Shown one piece after another: positions 13,180-24,185 of a stretch of DNA of 64,000 bases. A program made the translations under genes and the position numbers. The stretch comes from Acidobacteriota bacterium. Its GTDB lineage: Bacteria; Acidobacteriota; UBA890; WLXD01. The DNA lies in the NCBI GenBank assembly GCA_963666055.2, contig CAXWPH010000014.1, forward strand, positions 256,001 to 320,000. The letters run 5' to 3'. The notes under the pieces are model-generated. The model had not been told where the DNA came from, did not search any database, and worked only from the letters and a program-made list of their open reading frames with translations. How positions within the stretch are numbered: position 1 is the stretch's first letter; each line of letters starts with the position of its first letter.

Positions 13180-16023
13180 TTACCAATCGAACGAGCGCGT
13201 GACCTTGAGGGTGAGCGAGCGGTCGTGGCGTCCGAAGCGGAGTCCATCGTAGGCGCCCGCCTGACGGTAGACGAGATAGATATCGTCGCCGATGCGGTAG
13301 ATGTAACGCAGCCGGGCGAACACCGAGAGCCCGTTTGAAACGTTGCCGTACTGCACCAGCGCGTCGGTGAGCCAGCGGTCCGAAAAGCTGTAGCTGGCGC
13401 GCGCGTTAAGCACGTTGCTCGTGAAGCTGCCACCCGGCAGGTCGATCTTGTTGTAGCTGAAGGTGGGGGCGATGAGCAGCCTCTCACTGAGGCGAAACGT
13501 CAGCCCGGGCGACACCGTGACGATCGTACCGTCGTAGAACTCCCCGATATTCGCGTCGCCGCTCACGCTGATCCAGCGACCGCCAAAGGTGAAATAGAAA
13601 AGGTACAGGGTGTCGAATGTGTACTCGCCCGGTGGAATCGACACGTCGGGGTGGATCTGGAAGGGAAGCTCGAGCCGCTCGAACGTGTTCGAGTAGTAAG
13701 CACCTATACCGTCCCCCGACTCGGTGTTGAGGAAGCCGCCGTACCACGACTCGCGGCTCACGAGGTCGCCCCTGGTATCGTGGAAGGTCGTGTAGTTGAC
13801 ATCGAAGTTCACCGACCGCAGCCAAGAGATATCAGGCCGTGGATTCCACGCACCGCGGAAGGCTCGCCGCACGACGTCATCGCGCAGGACGAAGCCCAGA
13901 TCGCTACGGAAGTCGGGGTCGACGCGCATGATGTCGAAGCTGGCGCGCCACAGATCGCTCTGCCAGCCGACGCCGAACTGGCCGGCGAACTTACCTTCCT
14001 CGACGTCGTCGTCGGTAGCCCGGGCGGCAAAAGCGGAAATGTTGAGGTTGTCGAAGAAGGTAAAGCTGGCGTCGGCGCCGACAACCGTGTTGGTGGCCCC
14101 GTCCGCACCTTCGACGTTGGTTACCAGCGCACCCACGCTCGATCGGGCCAGCACATCCTGACGCCAGCGCAACGCCGTGAACCCCTGTCCCGCGCCCAAC
14201 ACGGAGTCGTCCGTGCGGACGTGGAGGAAGCCGACGCTGCCGCCTCCGACCTTGCCGGTCATCTTGGTACCGAAGTCGATCGGGATTGGGACGCCCGACG
14301 GCGACAGCCCGATGTTGCGCGAGTGGAAAAGCCGCAGCACCGGTGCGCTGAAGCCACTTCCACCGCTCGGACCGAAGCTGAAGTTGTTGGCGCCCTCGAG
14401 GAAGAAGTCGCGCTTTTCCGGGAAGAACAGTGAGAAGCGCGTCAGGTTGACACGCTGGTCGTCGAGCTCGACCTGGGCGAAATCGGTGTTGTAGGTCAGG
14501 TCGGCGGTCAGGTTCGAGGTGAGCTTGATCTTGAGATCGTCGATGCCGAACTGCTCGTCGATGTCGTTCGCACGTCCCGGATCCTCGAACAGCGAAGTGG
14601 CGTTACCGAGGAAGTACGGCCGCAGGCGGAACCGCTGGGTCACCGAGAGGTCCTGGAAGCCGCGCAGGTCGCCGGCCTGCGACACAGCGATGAACCGGAA
14701 GTCGCGCCGGTAGTTGCTCCAGGCAACCTGCTCGTTCTTGCGGCGGATCTGGCGCTCGAAGTCGACGCCCCAGTCGGCCAGGCCGGTGGAGAAGCGCAAG
14801 ATCCCGAGAGGGATGACCAGCTCGGCCTCCCAGCCGCGTGAGGTGATCTGCGCCGCCGCTTCCCAAGCCTCGTCCCATTCGGAGTTGATCTGACTTTCGT
14901 TGCGGATGGTGGCGTCGTAGCGCGCGCCCAGCGGATTGACCCTGAACAGGAAGGCGCTGCGTCCGTCGTGGAAGGTATCCAGCACGACGCTGAAGGTGTC
15001 ATCCGAGCCGCCGCCACCTCCACCGCCGCCGAAGAACCCTCCGCCGCCGCCAAGCGCGTCACGTCGCAGCTCACTGGCAAGAATACCGCTCGGGTTCGTG
15101 TCGTAGGCGATCAGCCCGACGTAAAGGTTCTGGTCGTCGTACAGAATGCGCACCTCAGTGCGCTCAGATGCGGGCCGTCCTTCCTGTGGCTCGCGTTGCA
15201 GGAAGTCGGTGGCGACGTCGGCCAGGGCCCAAACGGCGTCATCGACGATGCCGTCCATCACCGGAGCCTCAACGGTACGTGTCACGGTCATGTCGGGAGC
15301 CACACCGGGTGCTCGCGCCGATCGGGGTCGGGCCACTCCGAACACCGCCTCGGGCTCGGTGGGCGCCGGAATGCCGGCGCCTCCCGGGCCCGTCGCACGC
15401 CCGGGAACGACGGTGGGCAAACTCCTTGGTCCCGTCGGTCGCCTGGCGGAGTCACCGGGATTGATCGGTTGTACCAGGAGGTACCCGGGGCCGCCCGGAG
15501 GTACGGCCATCGCGTCGCTTGCAACCAACGGAGCTGGTGCCAGAGGCTGCACACGATCGGGATCCATGACCGGAGCGCCGGCGAGGCGAACGGGCGCGTT
15601 CAGCTCACTCGTCACCACCATACGAACCGGGATATATCTCCTCGGTGCCGGGACGACCACGGTCAGAGGCGCTCGGCGGCGGCCGCCGCCTCCTCCGGTC
15701 CCGGCCGCCCGCACCCTTGGCGAGCTGGCTGGCGTGCTCGAAGCCACCATGCGGACCGGAATCGCACGCCGCCCAGCTGCCCGCTGCGGCCCCGGGGCCT
15801 CGGTCTTGGGCGAGTCGTCCGTGGCCAGCTCAAGCTTGGCGGATTCTGGCCTGGCCCGCTTTGGCCGCCCGGGTTCCACCTTGGCGGATGCAGCTCGGGC
15901 GGACTGAGCCTGGCGCTTGCCCGCTCCAGAACCAGCGTCAGACGGGGTCGAAGCCTGCAGCCGCGGGCTCGCTCCAACCACCAGCGCAATGCAGACGACA
16001 ACAACGAATCTGGGCTTGTGCAC
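13180..16023 (-). CDS. DUF5916 / CBM9-like outer-membrane protein with Pro/Ala-rich N-terminal extension
   Basis: QREPQEGRPASERTEV, DFAQVELD, NLTRFSLFFPEKRDFFLEG and a beta-barrel-like C-terminus. GTG 16023 precedes a signal peptide; start uncertain. Confidence 0.8.
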   Translation of the reverse strand: MHKPRFVVVVCIALVVGASPRLQASTPSDAGSGAGKRQAQSARAASAKVEPGRPKRARPESAKLELATDDSPKTEAPGPQRAAGRRAIPVRMVASSTPASSPRVRAAGTGGGGGRRRAPLTVVVPAPRRYIPVRMVVTSELNAPVRLAGAPVMDPDRVQPLAPAPLVASDAMAVPPGGPGYLLVQPINPGDSARRPTGPRSLPTVVPGRATGPGGAGIPAPTEPEAVFGVARPRSARAPGVAPDMTVTRTVEAPVMDGIVDDAVWALADVATDFLQREPQEGRPASERTEVRILYDDQNLYVGLIAYDTNPSGILASELRRDALGGGGGFFGGGGGGGGSDDTFSVVLDTFHDGRSAFLFRVNPLGARYDATIRNESQINSEWDEAWEAAAQITSRGWEAELVIPLGILRFSTGLADWGVDFERQIRRKNEQVAWSNYRRDFRFIAVSQAGDLRGFQDLSVTQRFRLRPYFLGNATSLFEDPGRANDIDEQFGIDDLKIKLTSNLTADLTYNTDFAQVELDDQRVNLTRFSLFFPEKRDFFLEGANNFSFGPSGGSGFSAPVLRLFHSRNIGLSPSGVPIPIDFGTKMTGKVGGGSVGFLHVRTDDSVLGAGQGFTALRWRQDVLARSSVGALVTNVEGADGATNTVVGADASFTFFDNLNISAFAARATDDDVEEGKFAGQFGVGWQSDLWRASFDIMRVDPDFRSDLGFVLRDDVVRRAFRGAWNPRPDISWLRSVNFDVNYTTFHDTRGDLVSRESWYGGFLNTESGDGIGAYYSNTFERLELPFQIHPDVSIPPGEYTFDTLYLFYFTFGGRWISVSGDANIGEFYDGTIVTVSPGLTFRLSERLLIAPTFSYNKIDLPGGSFTSNVLNARASYSFSDRWLTDALVQYGNVSNGLSVFARLRYIYRIGDDIYLVYRQAGAYDGLRFGRHDRSLTLKVTRSFDW

Positions 16024-17325: not shown

Positions 17326-17605
17326 CTAGCAGGCCGTGGTGAAAGTGTGGTGGGTCTGGCGACAGGGTCTTGCGAAGTGCAGGCAAGGAGAAGAGGAGGA
17401 GGCGATGGTTACCGCATCGTTGACGAGGAACGACGCAGCATGCGCGCGCAACCCCCTGTCGCCCGAAGGGTTACGGCGAGTTGGGGCCATTTGCGGTGTT
17501 GGCCTTCCTGGACGATGGCCGGGGCATCGCCTGCGTCAGGCCGCCTTGCATCTGGCCCCAACTCGCCGTAACCAGACCCACCACACTTTCACCACGGCCT
17601 GCTAG
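17326..17605 (+). mobile_element. MITE-like element, copy 1 (280 bp including both CTAGs)
   Basis: 34-bp perfect inverted ends CTAGCAGGCCGTGGTGAAAGTGTGGTGGGTCTGG; near-identical copies at 39486 and 54035. Confidence 0.9.
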
Positions 17606-17740: not shown

Positions 17741-18064
17741 ATGGGCCAAGCTTCCTGGGAGCGCAGGATCCAAGAATCCAAGCGCCGTGCTGTCAGCTGT
17801 TTCCTCGTACTTCTACTGAGCCTGGTGGTTCTGTCTGTACCCACGACGCCCTCGCTGGCGGACACAGACGCGGCGCCGACGATGACTGCCACCGAGCAGA
17901 GCAGCTTGTTCTGGGTCGGCCTGGCATACCTGACAGAAGACCGACGGGCGAGCGCCATGGTAGGCGCTGTGGGTGTGCTCCAGACGTCAATCAACTCGGC
18001 GATCATCGGAGCCGTGTTCGGCGGGCCGGCGGGCTTCGCCGCGGGCGTCGGTTACGGACTCTAG
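17741..18064 (+). CDS. Putative circular-bacteriocin-like precursor peptide with Sec-type signal peptide
   Basis: GGAGG RBS; 107 aa; signal peptide ending SLA|D; Gly/Ala-rich hydrophobic C-terminal core LFWVG...GGPAGFAAGVGYGL; first gene of a SpoIIM-Yip1-ABC operon. Confidence 0.7.
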   Translation: MGQASWERRIQESKRRAVSCFLVLLLSLVVLSVPTTPSLADTDAAPTMTATEQSSLFWVGLAYLTEDRRASAMVGAVGVLQTSINSAIIGAVFGGPAGFAAGVGYGL

Positions 18065-18139: not shown

Positions 18140-18724
18140 GTGGAACCAACTGCGACAGCGAGATCGTTGACCATGCCTGCAATGGCTGCGGCGGTACTTT
18201 GGGGAGCGTCGGCGACCGTCGGGGCAGGTCTTTACATCGACTCGACCCCGCTGGCTCTTAGCTCCGATTCCGCCGCCGTGCTCGACACCGACCGAGCCGC
18301 CGTGTCGTTCGGAGTGATCCTGGCGCGCAACTTGTGGGTCTTCGGAATCAATATCGCAGGTGTAGCCAGTCTGGGAATCAGCACCCTTGGCTCTGTCGTT
18401 GCGAACGGGCTTCAGGCAGGCATGGTGCTTGGGCAGGCTTACCGAGAAGGCCTCGGCCTCAGTTCACTCGTCGCAGTAACTCTTCCCCATAGCCTCGAGC
18501 TTGTCGCGCTGTGGCTTTCAGCGGCTGTAGGGTTCCTCGGCCCTCGCCTGGCGATGTCGTTGGTGAACGACAGCGAGCTCCCGGCCTCACTCAGGCCACA
18601 GACGCTTGCCCTGGTCGTGCTTGCACTTGCGGGGTTGATCGTCACGGCAGCCGCCTTGGAGACAGGCGTGTCGTTGCCTATGGCGGAGCGTATTCGAAGC
18701 ACGGCGTCGGAGATCGGCTCGTGA
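18140..18724 (+). CDS. Stage II sporulation protein M (SpoIIM/DUF95) family membrane protein
   Basis: ILARNLWV...G..TL..VVANG..AG...TLPHSLELVA....A.VG matches the DUF95 N...NG...PH.E pattern. Confidence 0.85.
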   Translation: MEPTATARSLTMPAMAAAVLWGASATVGAGLYIDSTPLALSSDSAAVLDTDRAAVSFGVILARNLWVFGINIAGVASLGISTLGSVVANGLQAGMVLGQAYREGLGLSSLVAVTLPHSLELVALWLSAAVGFLGPRLAMSLVNDSELPASLRPQTLALVVLALAGLIVTAAALETGVSLPMAERIRSTASEIGS

Positions 18725-19278
18725 CCTTCGACACGGGGACCGACAGGTTTCTATCCACACTCCTGGTTGTTGGCACAGCGCTCGTACAAGGTCAGATCTC
18801 AGCCACCGTTGCCAGCAGCATCACCACTGTCATCATGCCGGCCTGGGCAGCACTCTTCGCGGGCTTCAACGGACTGATGACCTGTGCTCTGGCGATCGTT
18901 TTCTGGCTGCTCATAACCGCAATGGCTCACATCATCTGCCTGATCATGGATGGCCGAGGTGACTACGGTCGTTTCGTTGTAGGCGCTGGCTACGGTTATC
19001 TCCCCTACTTCCTGACTACGCTGATTACACTCGTGGCGGTGATCGACATCTCACCTCAGATCTCTGCGGCCCTAGAGTCGGGTGAGATGATCGGGGCTCC
19101 GTTACGCGCTCGGCTACGTTGGTACGGAGCACTCAACAACGCGGCGCAGGTGCTGTTGTTCGGCTGGGTGGCAGTAGCGGCACGGCGAGTCCACGGCGTT
19201 ACGATGGTTACGGCCGTGATGAGCGTGTTCGCACCTGTCGGGGCTGTCCTTCTAGCCCGCGGCGTGCTCGTAACATGA
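18721..19278 (+). CDS. Yip1 family membrane protein
   Basis: GTG overlaps the upstream stop (GTGA); HIICLIMDGRGDYGRFVVGAGYGYLP and RRVHGVT..TA are Yip1-like patterns. Confidence 0.72.
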   Translation: MTFDTGTDRFLSTLLVVGTALVQGQISATVASSITTVIMPAWAALFAGFNGLMTCALAIVFWLLITAMAHIICLIMDGRGDYGRFVVGAGYGYLPYFLTTLITLVAVIDISPQISAALESGEMIGAPLRARLRWYGALNNAAQVLLFGWVAVAARRVHGVTMVTAVMSVFAPVGAVLLARGVLVT

Positions 19279-19997
19279 GGGGTGTTGCTCCAGCAGACAC
19301 GACGCTGCGCTGTACGGACTTGTCTCGGACCTATTGCAGACGAGAGGTACTGTGCATCGACGATCTGGTTATCAAGCCTGGTGAACGGATCGTCGTCGTT
19401 GGCCCGAATGGCGCCGGGAAGACCACCTGGCTGCGGATACTCCTCGATCTGGTTCGACCAACCGGCGGCACAACCACCTTTGGTCTTCTCTCGCCGCAGC
19501 AGGCACGGCGCCAAGGCCTGCTAAGCGGGTACCTGGGCGAGGATTTTCTGATCCCCTATCTGACCGTGGATGAGTACCTGGCGTTCGTCGGCCGATCCTT
19601 CGGGTTGGAGACGGTTGAGATTGCCACCGCGAGGCAGGAGCTCGACGAGTTCATCGGCTTTGACGGGTCGGCCAAGCTGATCCGCCAGCTCTCCACCGGT
19701 ATGGGCCAGAAAGTCGGGCTCGCCGGTGCGCTGTTGGCAAACTCACCGATCCTGGTACTCGACGAGCCGTTTGCCAACCTTGATCCACCGTCTTGCTTGT
19801 CACTCATACGCCAGCTCCAAACACGCCACGCATCGACCAACGCCACGCACATCGTGTCGAGCCACAGCCTCGAGTACGTTGCCGACATCGCCGACCGCGT
19901 CCTCCTGTTGGAGCAAGGTCACATCATCTGGGACGAGACCGAGTACACCCAGGCCAGCTTGCGCCGGCATTTCAGCCAGGACGCTTGGCGATGCTGA
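19275..19997 (+). CDS. ABC transporter ATP-binding protein
   Basis: ATGA overlap; Walker A GPNGAGKT, signature LSTGMGQK, Walker B ILVLDEP, H-loop SSH. Confidence 0.93.
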   Translation: MRGVAPADTTLRCTDLSRTYCRREVLCIDDLVIKPGERIVVVGPNGAGKTTWLRILLDLVRPTGGTTTFGLLSPQQARRQGLLSGYLGEDFLIPYLTVDEYLAFVGRSFGLETVEIATARQELDEFIGFDGSAKLIRQLSTGMGQKVGLAGALLANSPILVLDEPFANLDPPSCLSLIRQLQTRHASTNATHIVSSHSLEYVADIADRVLLLEQGHIIWDETEYTQASLRRHFSQDAWRC

Positions 19998-21472
19998 TCG
20001 AATCGCTGCTGCGACACGAAGCTACTCGTATTCGCCGAGGTCTCGGGTTCACCGCGACCCGCCTCGGCATCAGGATCGGCCTGGCAACCCTGTTGCTTCC
20101 GCTCGTCGGCATGTGCTTCGCACTGGGAATGGTGTGGGTTCAGGCAACATCCGAGCTTGGAATCGACGGGATCGCGGCTCTTTCCAGGTACGCCCTACCG
20201 TGCTTGGTGGTCTTGACGACCGTTCGTGTAGCCTTCGACCGCGGCGTCGGACTCAACCCGATTCCATATGTGGCACTAGCCTGTTCCCGCCGCAGCTTGA
20301 CGGCATTCGTGATCGTCCGATCACTGTTCAATAAATACGCCTTGATTGTCTGCTTGTTCGCCAGCGGTTTGCTGCTCGCGTCACGGCTGGCACAAGGGGC
20401 CAGCGAGCGGGTGCCCCCGAGCTGGTTCATCGCGCTGGCGACGATCTGGATCGTCGCTGATCTCGCCGTGCATACGCTGAGGAGATGGCTCTTCCGGAGG
20501 TCCGTCGGTTACGTGATTCTTACGGGGCTGGGCCTCACGGCGGTATCGCTGGGCTGGCTGTCGAATCTTTCGAGCGCCTACTTTGCCTGGGCCGAGACAT
20601 CTCAAAGGGCAGCAATCTCCACCGGGCTCGCGGCCCTGTGCGCAGCTGTCTGGGCCGCGTACTTGAGCCTCGTGGAGTCGACCTATCTGGATACCGCGGC
20701 AATGGCCGACGGCCGGCGGCCGTGGCCCCTCGTGAGTCAGTTGCTGAGATCAGCCAACTCCGCAACCCGCTACGCAGCGCTCATGCTCTGCCTGATAGCC
20801 CGGGTCCCCAAGGCCCGGACCGCCATACTGGGCGGCGCCCTGATGACCGGAGCCGCTGTCTTGATCTATTGGCTCAATCCCGGCTACGGCGACAACCAGC
20901 TCATCGGCATGGGTGTTCTCGCTGGGTTCTACAGCAGCGGGAGTCTGGCCTTCTTCATCGGGCAGCTGGGATTGAGCTGGCAGAGCAGCTTCTACGATCT
21001 TCTGGCGTACGCCGAGCGCCACGAACGCGACGTTGTCCGCGGGCAAATTCTGAGCCTTCGATCACTCGTGCTCATTCAGTATGCGCTCGCGGCGCTCCTG
21101 TTCGCTGCAATCCTCGACGGTGGACTCTTCGTAGCGACCAGCTTCGCGATCTTCAATTTCGGCTGTGTGCCCCCCGTTTGTGTGTGGATCTCCCTCAGCA
21201 ACTCTCGGCGAATTGACCCCTACGACTCTGCCTTCTTCTCCCAGGAAGGAACCTCCAGCGCGGTTGAATCGTCGCTGGGAACCGCTGTTCTCGTCGCCAT
21301 TCCGCTCCTACTGAGCTTCGCCGCAATCTCTTCGGAGACCGCAGGTCTGATTGCCATCGGCGCCACAGGCGCCGCCGGTATCGTCGTAGGCCCCGCGATT
21401 GAACGACGACTCGCATCGCTCCGCAGGTCGCGACGCTACGTCCTCGCTCACCAGCTGAGACAGCGTGCTTGA
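19991..21472 (+). CDS. Multi-pass ABC exporter permease (DUF5687-like)
   Basis: ATG 19991 overlaps the ATPase stop; 493 aa with roughly 12 hydrophobic segments; GQLGLSWQSSFYD recalls DUF5687 permeases (from memory). Confidence 0.7.
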   Translation: MLIESLLRHEATRIRRGLGFTATRLGIRIGLATLLLPLVGMCFALGMVWVQATSELGIDGIAALSRYALPCLVVLTTVRVAFDRGVGLNPIPYVALACSRRSLTAFVIVRSLFNKYALIVCLFASGLLLASRLAQGASERVPPSWFIALATIWIVADLAVHTLRRWLFRRSVGYVILTGLGLTAVSLGWLSNLSSAYFAWAETSQRAAISTGLAALCAAVWAAYLSLVESTYLDTAAMADGRRPWPLVSQLLRSANSATRYAALMLCLIARVPKARTAILGGALMTGAAVLIYWLNPGYGDNQLIGMGVLAGFYSSGSLAFFIGQLGLSWQSSFYDLLAYAERHERDVVRGQILSLRSLVLIQYALAALLFAAILDGGLFVATSFAIFNFGCVPPVCVWISLSNSRRIDPYDSAFFSQEGTSSAVESSLGTAVLVAIPLLLSFAAISSETAGLIAIGATGAAGIVVGPAIERRLASLRRSRRYVLAHQLRQRA

Positions 21473-22602: not shown

Positions 22603-23604
22603 CTATGCGGCACCCGTCGCGGGCAATTCGAGGGTCACCTGCAGGCCGCGCTTCGCTGACCGGTCCAGCCTCAGCCCGCCGCCGTATAGCTCGACCAGGG
22701 CCTGGACGATCCGAAGCCCGACGCCACGACGCGGGCTGTGCACCGACTCGGGTCGGCCGGTGGCCAATATCTGGTCTCGCACCGCTTCGCTGAGCCCCGG
22801 TCCGTCGTCCTCGACGACGATGAGCAACCTGTCTTCGGCGGCATGCGCCCGCACCTCGACGCTACCTCGACACCACTTGCAGGCGTTCTCGAGCACGTTG
22901 CCAAGCATCTCCTCGAGATCTTCCGGATTGCCATGAAAGTTCAGGTCCGGAGGGACCTCGCAACGAATCTCGAGCCGGCGGCCGACGTGCAGCTGGCGCA
23001 TCGCACGCACCAGCCCATCGACGCTCGGAGCGACGGGGCAGGACCCTGTGGGGGGGGGGGGGGGGGGGGGGTGGGCGAGCCGAGCCGCGGCGGCACTGGC
23101 CCTGGACAAGTGCAGCGTCACGCGGTCGCTCATTGCCTCGACCTGTTCGCGCAGGCCCTCGGCTGCGGGGTGGTCGTCCTTTCGCAGCCGCTCGATCTCG
23201 TTGGTGAGAATTGTCAGCGGCGTCTTCAGGCCGTGCGCCAAGCTGTCTGCTTCCAGGTGTGATCGCCGAAGGGCCTCTTGATTGCGCCGCAACAGGTCGT
23301 TGACCTCGTCCACCAGGGGATGCACCTCTGCCGGATACTCGCCTTCGAGCCGGGCAGCCGATCCGTCCCGCACCGGCGCCAGGCGCTGGCCCAGTCGAGC
23401 CAGTGGAAGGAGGCTCGCGGCGACCCGGAGGGCACCGCCCAGCATCAAGCCGAACGCCAGCAAGCAGATAACGCCGACCCAAAAGTCTTCGACTTCCAGA
23501 AAGCCCACGGCGCCGAGCGCCAAGGCGCCGACCGCCCACAGCAGGCCACCGGAAATGATCGCGGAACGGAGTGTGGTGGCACGCGTCAGGCTCCTCACGT
23601 TCAT
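22603..23604 (-). CDS. Sensor histidine kinase (QseC/PhoQ-like)
   Basis: LAHGLKTPL H-box, GNVLENACKW N-box, VEDDGPG, GVGL. Contains a G22 run read as poly-Pro. Confidence 0.88.
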   Translation of the reverse strand: MNVRSLTRATTLRSAIISGGLLWAVGALALGAVGFLEVEDFWVGVICLLAFGLMLGGALRVAASLLPLARLGQRLAPVRDGSAARLEGEYPAEVHPLVDEVNDLLRRNQEALRRSHLEADSLAHGLKTPLTILTNEIERLRKDDHPAAEGLREQVEAMSDRVTLHLSRASAAAARLAHPPPPPPPTGSCPVAPSVDGLVRAMRQLHVGRRLEIRCEVPPDLNFHGNPEDLEEMLGNVLENACKWCRGSVEVRAHAAEDRLLIVVEDDGPGLSEAVRDQILATGRPESVHSPRRGVGLRIVQALVELYGGGLRLDRSAKRGLQVTLELPATGAA

Positions 23605-24185
23605 ACCGTGCGGCCTCGAGCGAGTCCAGCGCCCGGGTGGTCAGAGCCCGTCTGCTCGGGCACTTGATACCCCAGGCCACTCAGCGTGCGGATCAGATCG
23701 CGGCCCAGCTTCCGGCGCAGCCGGGCGATGAACACCTCGATGGTGTTGGAGTCGCGCTCCCAATCCTGCGCGTAGACATGCTCGACGAGCTCCGACACCG
23801 ACACCACCCGGCCCTGATTGTGCAGCAGGTAGCGCAGCACCTTGAGCTCGTACGCGGTCAGATGAACGCGCTCGCCTTCGAGCCTGACCTCGAGCGACCT
23901 CGTATCGAGAGTCACAGCCCCGTGCCGGAGCACCGGCGACGCACGTCCTGCAGAACGTCGCAGTAGCGCCCGCAACCTCGCGAGAAGCTCCTCCATGCGA
24001 AACGGCTTGGGGAGGTAGTCGTCCGCACCCGCGTCTATCCCCGCTACTCTCTCGTGCCATCGGCCACGCACGGTGAGCACGAGGACGGGTGTGGCCACTC
24101 CCTCCGCGCGCAGCTTCTCGAGCACCTGCAGGCCGTCCAGCTGCCTGGCGAGATCGGCCTCATCCTCAACAACGAGTACCCGCAT
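23601..24185 (-). pseudogene. OmpR-family response regulator with internal deletion of the phospho-acceptor region
   Basis: MRVLVVEDEADLARQL jumps directly to DGLQVLEKL, so the ...VLDLGLP segment is missing. The winged-helix C-terminus is intact. Confidence 0.8.

Follow-up and report, generated by a model that had tools for sequence, protein, structure and literature searches.

Does the small gene P0001 encode the precursor of a circular peptide? It lies in the window (the whole 64,000-nucleotide stretch of Acidobacteriota DNA analysed here, from genome G000), and the first-pass annotation had read its product as a signal peptide, an acidic spacer and a neutral core that would be exported and joined head to tail.

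The precursor gene and the operon it heads

P0001 is a genuine gene with a core under purifying selection, because phmmer finds four homologues (65-88% identity, among 28 candidates) that all terminate at the same Leu and because the core shows an excess of synonymous changes. Codon differences from the genome G002 are 12 synonymous to 3 non-synonymous in the core and 4 to 10 in the leader; for G001, the counts are 19 to 12 and 14 to 15. GGAGG stands 6 nt upstream of the ATG, and the precursor has no meaningful family in Pfam or NCBIfam. Its product has three parts (Table 1). Residues 1-16 are basic (net +3), residues 17-33 are uncharged with a GRAVY of 2.85, and residues 34-40 begin with Pro34 and end in SLA|D, giving an AxA-type site at 38-40. 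This layout agrees with the signal peptide proposed for residues 1-40, although the term 'classical' rests on a simple n/h/c-region rule. The spacer is polar as described (net -3, GRAVY -0.85) and constant in length among the five Acidobacteriota copies, but its charge varies from copy to copy (net -3, -2, 0, -1 and -1 in the alignment), so that acidity is not a conserved trait. The description of residues 56-107 as a neutral 52-aa core with hydrophobic termini and small-xxx-small motifs holds in full (net 0, GRAVY 0.93, 12 overlapping motifs).

Table 1. Features of the window and of related loci; positions are those of the window unless a locus is named.
Feature	Position	Strand	Basis or remark
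Precursor gene P0001, 107 aa	17741..18064	+	translation, homologues, codon differences; Pfam: none
Residues 1-40, signal-peptide-like leader	17741..17860	+	segment composition, n/h/c-region rule
Residues 41-55, polar spacer	17861..17905	+	alignment of five close copies
Residues 56-107, hydrophobic core rich in Gly and Ala, net charge 0; mature peptide predicted to start at L56 or F57	17906..18061	+	
Short SpoIIM/DUF95 membrane protein, 183 aa (194 aa from GTG 18140)	18173..18724	+	PF01944, E 6.3e-11, above cut-off
Yip1-like membrane protein, 185 aa	18721..19278	+	PF04893, E 1.3e-5, 25.5 bits, under 28.6 cut-off; alignment
ABC transporter ATPase, 240 aa	19275..19997	+	PF00005, E 6.6e-20
DUF5687 multi-pass membrane protein, 493 aa, about 10 hydrophobic segments	19991..21472	+	PF18940, E 8.3e-30
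MITE-like element, 280 bp	17326-17605		palindromic, 47-nt inverted ends
Long ORF, probable outer-membrane hydrolase-like protein	13180-15300	-	many paralogues in genus
Response-regulator gene	23601-24185	-	part of receiver domain apparently missing
Window equivalents absent from the G001 cluster	19117-20502; 20748-20946		Yip1 end, ATPase, DUF5687 start; about 200 bp
G001 copy of the cluster	L008 7093-7332		
MITE-like element remnants in G002	L049 4873-4905; 6819-6871		33 nt, at precursor stop codon; about 50 nt, near ATPase/DUF5687 junction
Full MITE-like element in G002	L049 8381-8660		after DUF5687
Zn-ribbon genes	L014 4423-4743; L016 4398-4724; L017 781-1134; L020 2832-3155		
Zn-ribbon genes	L021 3-314; L022 28-357; L023 323-646; L009 5411-5764		
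Type-2 precursors beside short SpoIIM	L046 3963-4540; L048 5894-6193; L059 5132-5428; L060 5760-6035		Bacteroidota; tandem precursors in L046
O-antigen-ligase-like (Wzy_C) TPR genes	L059 3220-5031; L060 7449-9245		Pfam
ORFs similar to the Wzy_C TPR gene	L046 2057-3856; L048 6263-8053		
Unannotated cluster, Bacillus thuringiensis plasmid CP052063.1	L051 3020-6082		two ORFs of about 64 aa, 489-aa membrane protein, SpoIIM, ABC ATPase

The gene heads a five-gene operon, in the order precursor, SpoIIM, Yip1, ABC ATPase and DUF5687 with all genes on the same strand, and the SpoIIM/Yip1, Yip1/ATPase and ATPase/DUF5687 pairs overlap by 4, 4 and 7 nt. Its SpoIIM is the sole match in G000 to a short-SpoIIM profile, and the DUF5687 protein is likely to be the permease partner of the ATPase. 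The minimal set of circular bacteriocin clusters is given as a precursor, SpoIIM and a transporter, often with Yip1 (PMC8659200, PMC6131525, bioRxiv 10.1101/2025.10.31.685828); overlapping genes are said to characterise such clusters (PMC7132975), and a small hydrophobic precursor beside SpoIIM is treated as defining the class (PMC13289728, PMC6131525). Judged by predicted gene content, the operon matches this set, and the reading of P0001 as a circular-bacteriocin-type precursor gains support from the SpoIIM, Yip1, ABC and membrane-protein genes that do follow it. No gene for a small cationic hydrophobic immunity protein, a trait of the class, is seen in the operon among ORFs of 45 aa or more, none of the five genes encodes a peptidase, and the ORF list of the window has no pilus or secretion genes beside them. 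Scans for promoters and terminators gave counts at chance level.

We note some further features of the region. Directly upstream of the operon lies the MITE-like element. G000 contains 89 distinct copies of full length that are at least 80% identical, and Rfam has no family that the element matches at threshold. The G002 cluster has no such element upstream, but remnants and a full copy occur at other positions there (Table 1). Elsewhere in the window, a histidine-kinase gene adjoins the response-regulator gene, in whose product DLARQL is followed directly by DGLQVLE.

Relatives in the Acidobacteriota and Bacteroidota

Among 61 relatives searched, the precursor is present in three, all within the genus (three of its five genomes), and DUF5687 scores above cut-off in the same three out of 401 genomes of the phylum. 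The G001 cluster keeps its precursor and SpoIIM intact, and from the two missing segments (Table 1) this copy appears to be decayed or misassembled. As to origin, the window ATPase scores 129 bits against a DUF5687-linked Prevotellaceae ATPase and at most 100 bits against other ATPases of its own genome. The SpoIIM tree (21 rows) places four Acidobacteriota-type SpoIIMs within 12 short SpoIIMs of Bacteroidota-type loci; two Bacillota sequences and three long forms fall outside this group (support 90/88, not starred, on long branches). Because of these bit scores and this placement, we suggest that the cluster was transferred from Bacteroidota into the Acidobacteriota genus.

More distant relatives were sought in genomes and metagenomes by the back-translated C-terminal motif. 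The genomes gave three matches (one in the Acidobacteriota, one in the Prevotellaceae genome G401 and one by chance); the metagenomes gave 16, of which 10 are precursor-like (one repeats the G001 protein, and two share a single sequence) and six were dropped. Chance or unrelated frames account for L010 in the genomes and for L012, L013, L015 and L024-L026 in the metagenomes. The low-GC members, on contigs of Prevotella type and others, are tied by cluster look-ups to Segatella salivae and Leyella stercorea. They are 85-89 aa long, and a basic start of the MKK type is followed by a hydrophobic stretch without charge, a short polar linker and the same core. SpoIIM follows the precursor in all nine low-GC loci whose DNA reaches far enough, and a Yip1-like ORF follows SpoIIM (Pfam-positive in one of five scanned, L017; the others align at low identity). 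Upstream of the precursor, eight of ten low-GC loci (L018 is cut and L019 has only 350 nt upstream) carry an unnamed Zn-ribbon protein (CxxC...CxxC) of about 105 aa with two hydrophobic segments; it is a candidate immunity or regulatory factor, and G000 has no match to it. ABC or DUF5687 genes are not seen beside the Bacteroidota type-1 clusters at the loci inspected, and G401 has its DUF5687 and ABC pair on a contig other than that of the precursor cluster, in the opposite gene order.

Since the motif search itself fixes the terminal GL of the members it finds, a search anchored on SpoIIM was added. It gave 12 matches in 401 genomes of the family of G401 and eight in 401 genomes of its phylum, four and three of them, respectively, of the short form; the long forms (8/12 and 5/8) were set aside, and the three long-form loci inspected have no precursor-like neighbour. 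Precursor-like ORFs lie upstream at five of six distinct short-SpoIIM loci. At the sixth, in G1134 (L047/L061), no precursor is seen ahead of the short SpoIIM and Yip1-like genes; the upstream DNA there passes into a region of higher GC that looks mobile. The five ORFs have leaders of 35-39 aa, a Q|V/I/L junction and tail-free cores of 53-60 aa with a net charge of -1 or -2, ending L, L, L, L and A. Only the L060 core beat shuffles when compared with the P0001 core (4 of 500); the other four failed. Two of the five have Cys at core positions +5 and -3, as might be expected if the two ends of the core lay side by side, although n is two and their homology to P0001 is uncertain.

The type-2 precursors listed in Table 1 show a QQ|V junction and in some cases a W-x-P-V-G-W-like motif. 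Their loci are flanked by Wzy_C TPR genes or similar ORFs and also by MacAB-like efflux genes; glycosylation of the peptides is a possibility that this gene content raises. A precursor profile run over 401 Bacteroidota genomes, with at most 13 candidates scored per genome, matched only the genome at the centre of the search. Viral contigs yielded no motif match and no confirmed relative, and plasmids no DUF5687 and no Bacteroidota-type precursor. One weak SpoIIM match on a Bacillus thuringiensis plasmid belongs to the unannotated cluster L051, which is probably a circular bacteriocin locus.

Core boundaries, leader and possible products

Compared with its four close relatives, P0001 is least conserved at residues 34-55 (32-68%) and most conserved at 81-107 (89-100%), so that the supposed spacer is the least conserved part in every case. 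Conservation had been expected to start at L56 or W58. It does begin near there, but L56 is invariant only in the five Acidobacteriota copies, the column being K, Q or D in the eight Bacteroidota-type members, and the boundary that holds for the whole family precedes F57, whose column is hydrophobic in 13 of 13. The residue before the core is S/G or K/Q/D and never Asn. Taking the alignment as a guide, we place the mature start tentatively at L56, with F57 a somewhat weaker candidate; a start at W58 is improbable, and is kept in consideration because an AxA stands directly before the aromatic residue in five of the eight Bacteroidota-type members. Cores begin with a hydrophobic residue after a polar one, and their last residue before the stop codon is L, V or A. 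The variable C-terminal extensions that would have spoken against the idea are absent from all relatives, including the precursor-like ORFs found through SpoIIM; an N-terminal leader alone, no C-terminal extension and hydrophobic core ends are traits of the class, and the ligation sites of circular bacteriocins are described as hydrophobic and helical (PMC6131525). The predicted core is about 50-52 aa here (51-52 from F57 or L56) and 52-55 aa in type-1 relatives; with the SpoIIM-anchored ORFs included, cores span 51-60 aa and net charges of -3 to +3. Mature circular bacteriocins have 58-70 aa, and altitudin S has 76 (PMC7132975, bioRxiv 10.1101/2025.10.31.685828). With the boundary as predicted, the core thus falls below this range, and the suggestion of an unusually small ring extends to the family (51-55 aa, in general neutral).

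Similarity searches give the circular reading less help. The likeness of LFWVG to the IYWIA start of gassericin A, noted at first pass, lacks statistical support: hhalign gives a probability of 0.1% against each of plantacyclin B21AG and paracyclicin, and none of the 13 family members matches PF12173 at E 10, whereas both of these controls match at E of about 1e-26. P0001 therefore does not group with subgroup II (PF12173) by similarity, nor by an Asn at -1. We count this want of any sequence or profile match to a known circular bacteriocin against a ring. In the ESM Atlas, the nearest named clusters are class IIc cyclic bacteriocins at 0.76 and 0.79 (below 0.9, and hence a weak lead), with PF12173 on 44% of members. 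A profile search of the PDB with the precursor gave a best E of 0.11, to an unrelated entry. In the low-confidence model of the core (S55-L107, 27 sequences; pLDDT 68, pTM 0.36; full-length precursor, pLDDT 58, pTM 0.26), three helices are predicted. Both ends of the core are helical, in favour of a ring; the saposin-like fold is a bundle of four or five helices with adjacent termini, and the difference in number, at that confidence, counts against one. Searches with this low-confidence core model gave no Foldseek match at E 0.001 and, in VIA-align, a best Z of 4.6 to a generic helical structure, with no bacteriocin among the 50 matches listed.

Despite these points, and despite the losses in the G001 copy and the want of an immunity gene in the operon, we consider a circular product probable, by whichever route it is made. 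Our leading proposal, held tentatively, is that P0001 is the precursor of a small uncharged membrane peptide, cyclised head to tail, which the SpoIIM, Yip1, ATPase and DUF5687 proteins of the operon make in a two-step Sec route. Residues 1-40 would target the precursor to the inner membrane via Sec, and signal peptidase I would cut after A40. The spacer of 15-16 residues would then be removed at the polar/hydrophobic boundary, and ligation of the new N-terminus to L107 would take place at a membrane complex centred on SpoIIM and Yip1. The ATPase and DUF5687 may release the product or clear the membrane of it, which would also protect the producer, and the ring of 51-52 aa (about 5.0-5.2 kDa) would act on the membranes of competing bacteria. 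Beyond the gene anatomy we infer every step, including cyclisation, Sec export and antibacterial activity.

The leader bears directly on this route. All five Acidobacteriota copies have Pro34 and, with residue 40 as its last position, an AxA-type site (SLA, SLA, ALS, AFA and AMA, under a permissive n/h/c rule). In the Bacteroidota-type leaders no signal-peptidase site is conserved behind the h-region; the AxA before the aromatic residue in five of eight would imply a single cut and a product of 54 aa. The annotation had taken Sec export followed by periplasmic or membrane cyclisation to be an unusual route for the class. The build of the leader is not itself unusual, because the controls plantacyclin B21AG and paracyclicin both have a basic start and an uncharged stretch of 17-20 residues before the cut after Asn (placed from the 58-aa mature length, PMC7132975). 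A signal-like leader is thus not new; what appears distinctive in the alignment is the conserved AxA-type site with its 15-residue spacer, in the Acidobacteriota clade only. A host signal peptidase has been proposed, though not shown, as the enzyme of the first cut (PMC6131525).

The same leader may instead be a membrane anchor, the cluster's membrane proteins cutting once at the core boundary, with cyclisation on the cytoplasmic side and export by ABC/DUF5687 as in Gram-positive clusters. The like build of the two control leaders, the unconserved AxA site after the h-region in Bacteroidota and the encoded ATPase all fit such an anchor, and the reported cyclisation of leucocyclicin Q within the cell (PMC6131525) is hard to reconcile with a route that begins with Sec export. 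We nevertheless regard it as unlikely: Pro34 and a small residue 40 are kept in five of five Acidobacteriota copies although residues 34-55 are only 32-68% identical, and the inspected Bacteroidota type-1 loci have no ABC genes beside the cluster. Among the routes to a ring, the two-step Sec route is the likelier.

Nor need the product be a ring. Divergicin A and enterocin P are Sec-dependent class II bacteriocins, and P0001 could likewise give a linear, Sec-secreted Gly-zipper peptide that acts on membranes, with SpoIIM and Yip1 serving release or self-protection. The missing similarity to known rings agrees with this, signal peptidase alone could free the core where AxA precedes the aromatic residue, and many junctions have Gln at -1, where a cut on its N-terminal side could leave a linear peptide capped by pyroglutamate. 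Moreover, a DUF95 knockout in leucocyclicin Q still cyclised (PMC6131525), so SpoIIM is no proof of a cyclase. Set against this are the pairing of SpoIIM with a small hydrophobic precursor, which is the mark of the circular class (PMC13289728, PMC6131525), and two core ends that are hydrophobic with a tail-free C-terminus throughout, and we judge a linear peptide to be improbable. Least credible is a pilin-like membrane or surface subunit with no antimicrobial role, served by SpoIIM and Yip1 as a membrane-remodelling module and glycosylated in some lineages: the neutral core lacks the polybasic patch of most circular bacteriocins (PMC7132975), SpoIIM and Yip1 families have other roles (PMC5898192), a Wzy_C TPR gene flanks L059 and L060, and conjugative pilins are Sec-exported and some cyclic (PMC11722321), but no pilus or secretion genes adjoin the operon, cyclic pilins lose a C-terminal tail that these precursors do not have, and the patchy distribution in the genus together with the decay in G001 fits an accessory competition locus.

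Comparison with known systems

By gene content, these loci appear to form an unannotated diderm branch of circular-bacteriocin-like clusters in the Acidobacteriota and Bacteroidota. Nearly all clusters found by mining come from Bacillota; the one Gram-negative cluster noted belongs to Novosphingobium (PMC5695211). The full-text literature searched contains nothing on the P0001 family or DUF5687; the supplementary cluster tables of PMC5695211 and PMC8659200, which lay outside that search, could list members. It is a good deal more doubtful that every part of a wider proposal holds, namely a Gram-negative branch of circular bacteriocins spread in Bacteroidota (including oral and gut relatives of Prevotella) and passed to one Acidobacteriota genus, with the smallest rings (51-55 aa), Sec export, closure at the outer face of the inner membrane by SpoIIM and Yip1 only, and DUF5687 acting as ABC permease in cis or in trans, which would be its first role. 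The precursor models of Pfam miss the family, although it has members in named species that can be cultured (Segatella salivae, Leyella stercorea). Several loci reduce to the precursor, SpoIIM, Yip1 and one small gene. For circular bacteriocins in general, no enzyme has yet been assigned to cutting and cyclisation (PMC6131525). Should P0001 prove to give a ring, the cyclase would be narrowed to two proteins, and precursor-SpoIIM-Yip1 would be a minimal system in which to seek it; the old proposal of a host signal peptidase for the first cut could be tested, the size limit of the class would be lowered, and gut and oral Bacteroidales would have a candidate competition peptide.

Cyclic conjugative pilins (TrbC of RP4, TrhA of R27) resemble the product proposed for P0001 in the Sec-type leader, in processing at the inner membrane and in a head-to-tail ring within a Gram-negative cell (PMC11722321). 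They lose a C-terminal tail through a TraF-type peptidase, whereas P0001 is tail-free and its cluster has neither a gene for such a peptidase nor conjugation genes close by. The DUF5687 (PF18940) and ABC ATPase pair of Bacteroidota is of the same family as that of the window and likewise has an ATPase neighbour in a Prevotellaceae genome; the pair is joined to the precursor cluster in the window but lies apart from it in G401. The long-leader clusters of Bacillus with Yip1 (altitudin S, pumilarin; amylocyclicin) have precursor, SpoIIM, Yip1 and ABC genes as here. Altitudin S has a 56-aa leader and a ring that starts with Leu, like P0001 (bioRxiv 10.1101/2025.10.31.685828); as described there, it has 76 aa, a net charge of +13, a Trp end and an M48 peptidase gene, while the P0001 core is neutral with a Leu end and its operon has no peptidase. 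The subgroup II circular bacteriocins (gassericin A, acidocin B, butyrivibriocin AR10, plantacyclin B21AG and paracyclicin; PF12173) share the basic-plus-hydrophobic leader, a near-neutral hydrophobic core (GRAVY about 1.0 versus 0.93) with hydrophobic ends and an aromatic residue near its start, and SpoIIM and ABC genes in the cluster. They differ in core length (58 aa versus 51-52) and leader length (27-33 aa in the two controls versus 55-56); the P0001 family has no detectable sequence similarity to them, lacks Asn at -1 and carries a conserved FGGP(A/V)G motif, and its cluster is set apart by a putative DUF5687 permease and by diderm hosts.
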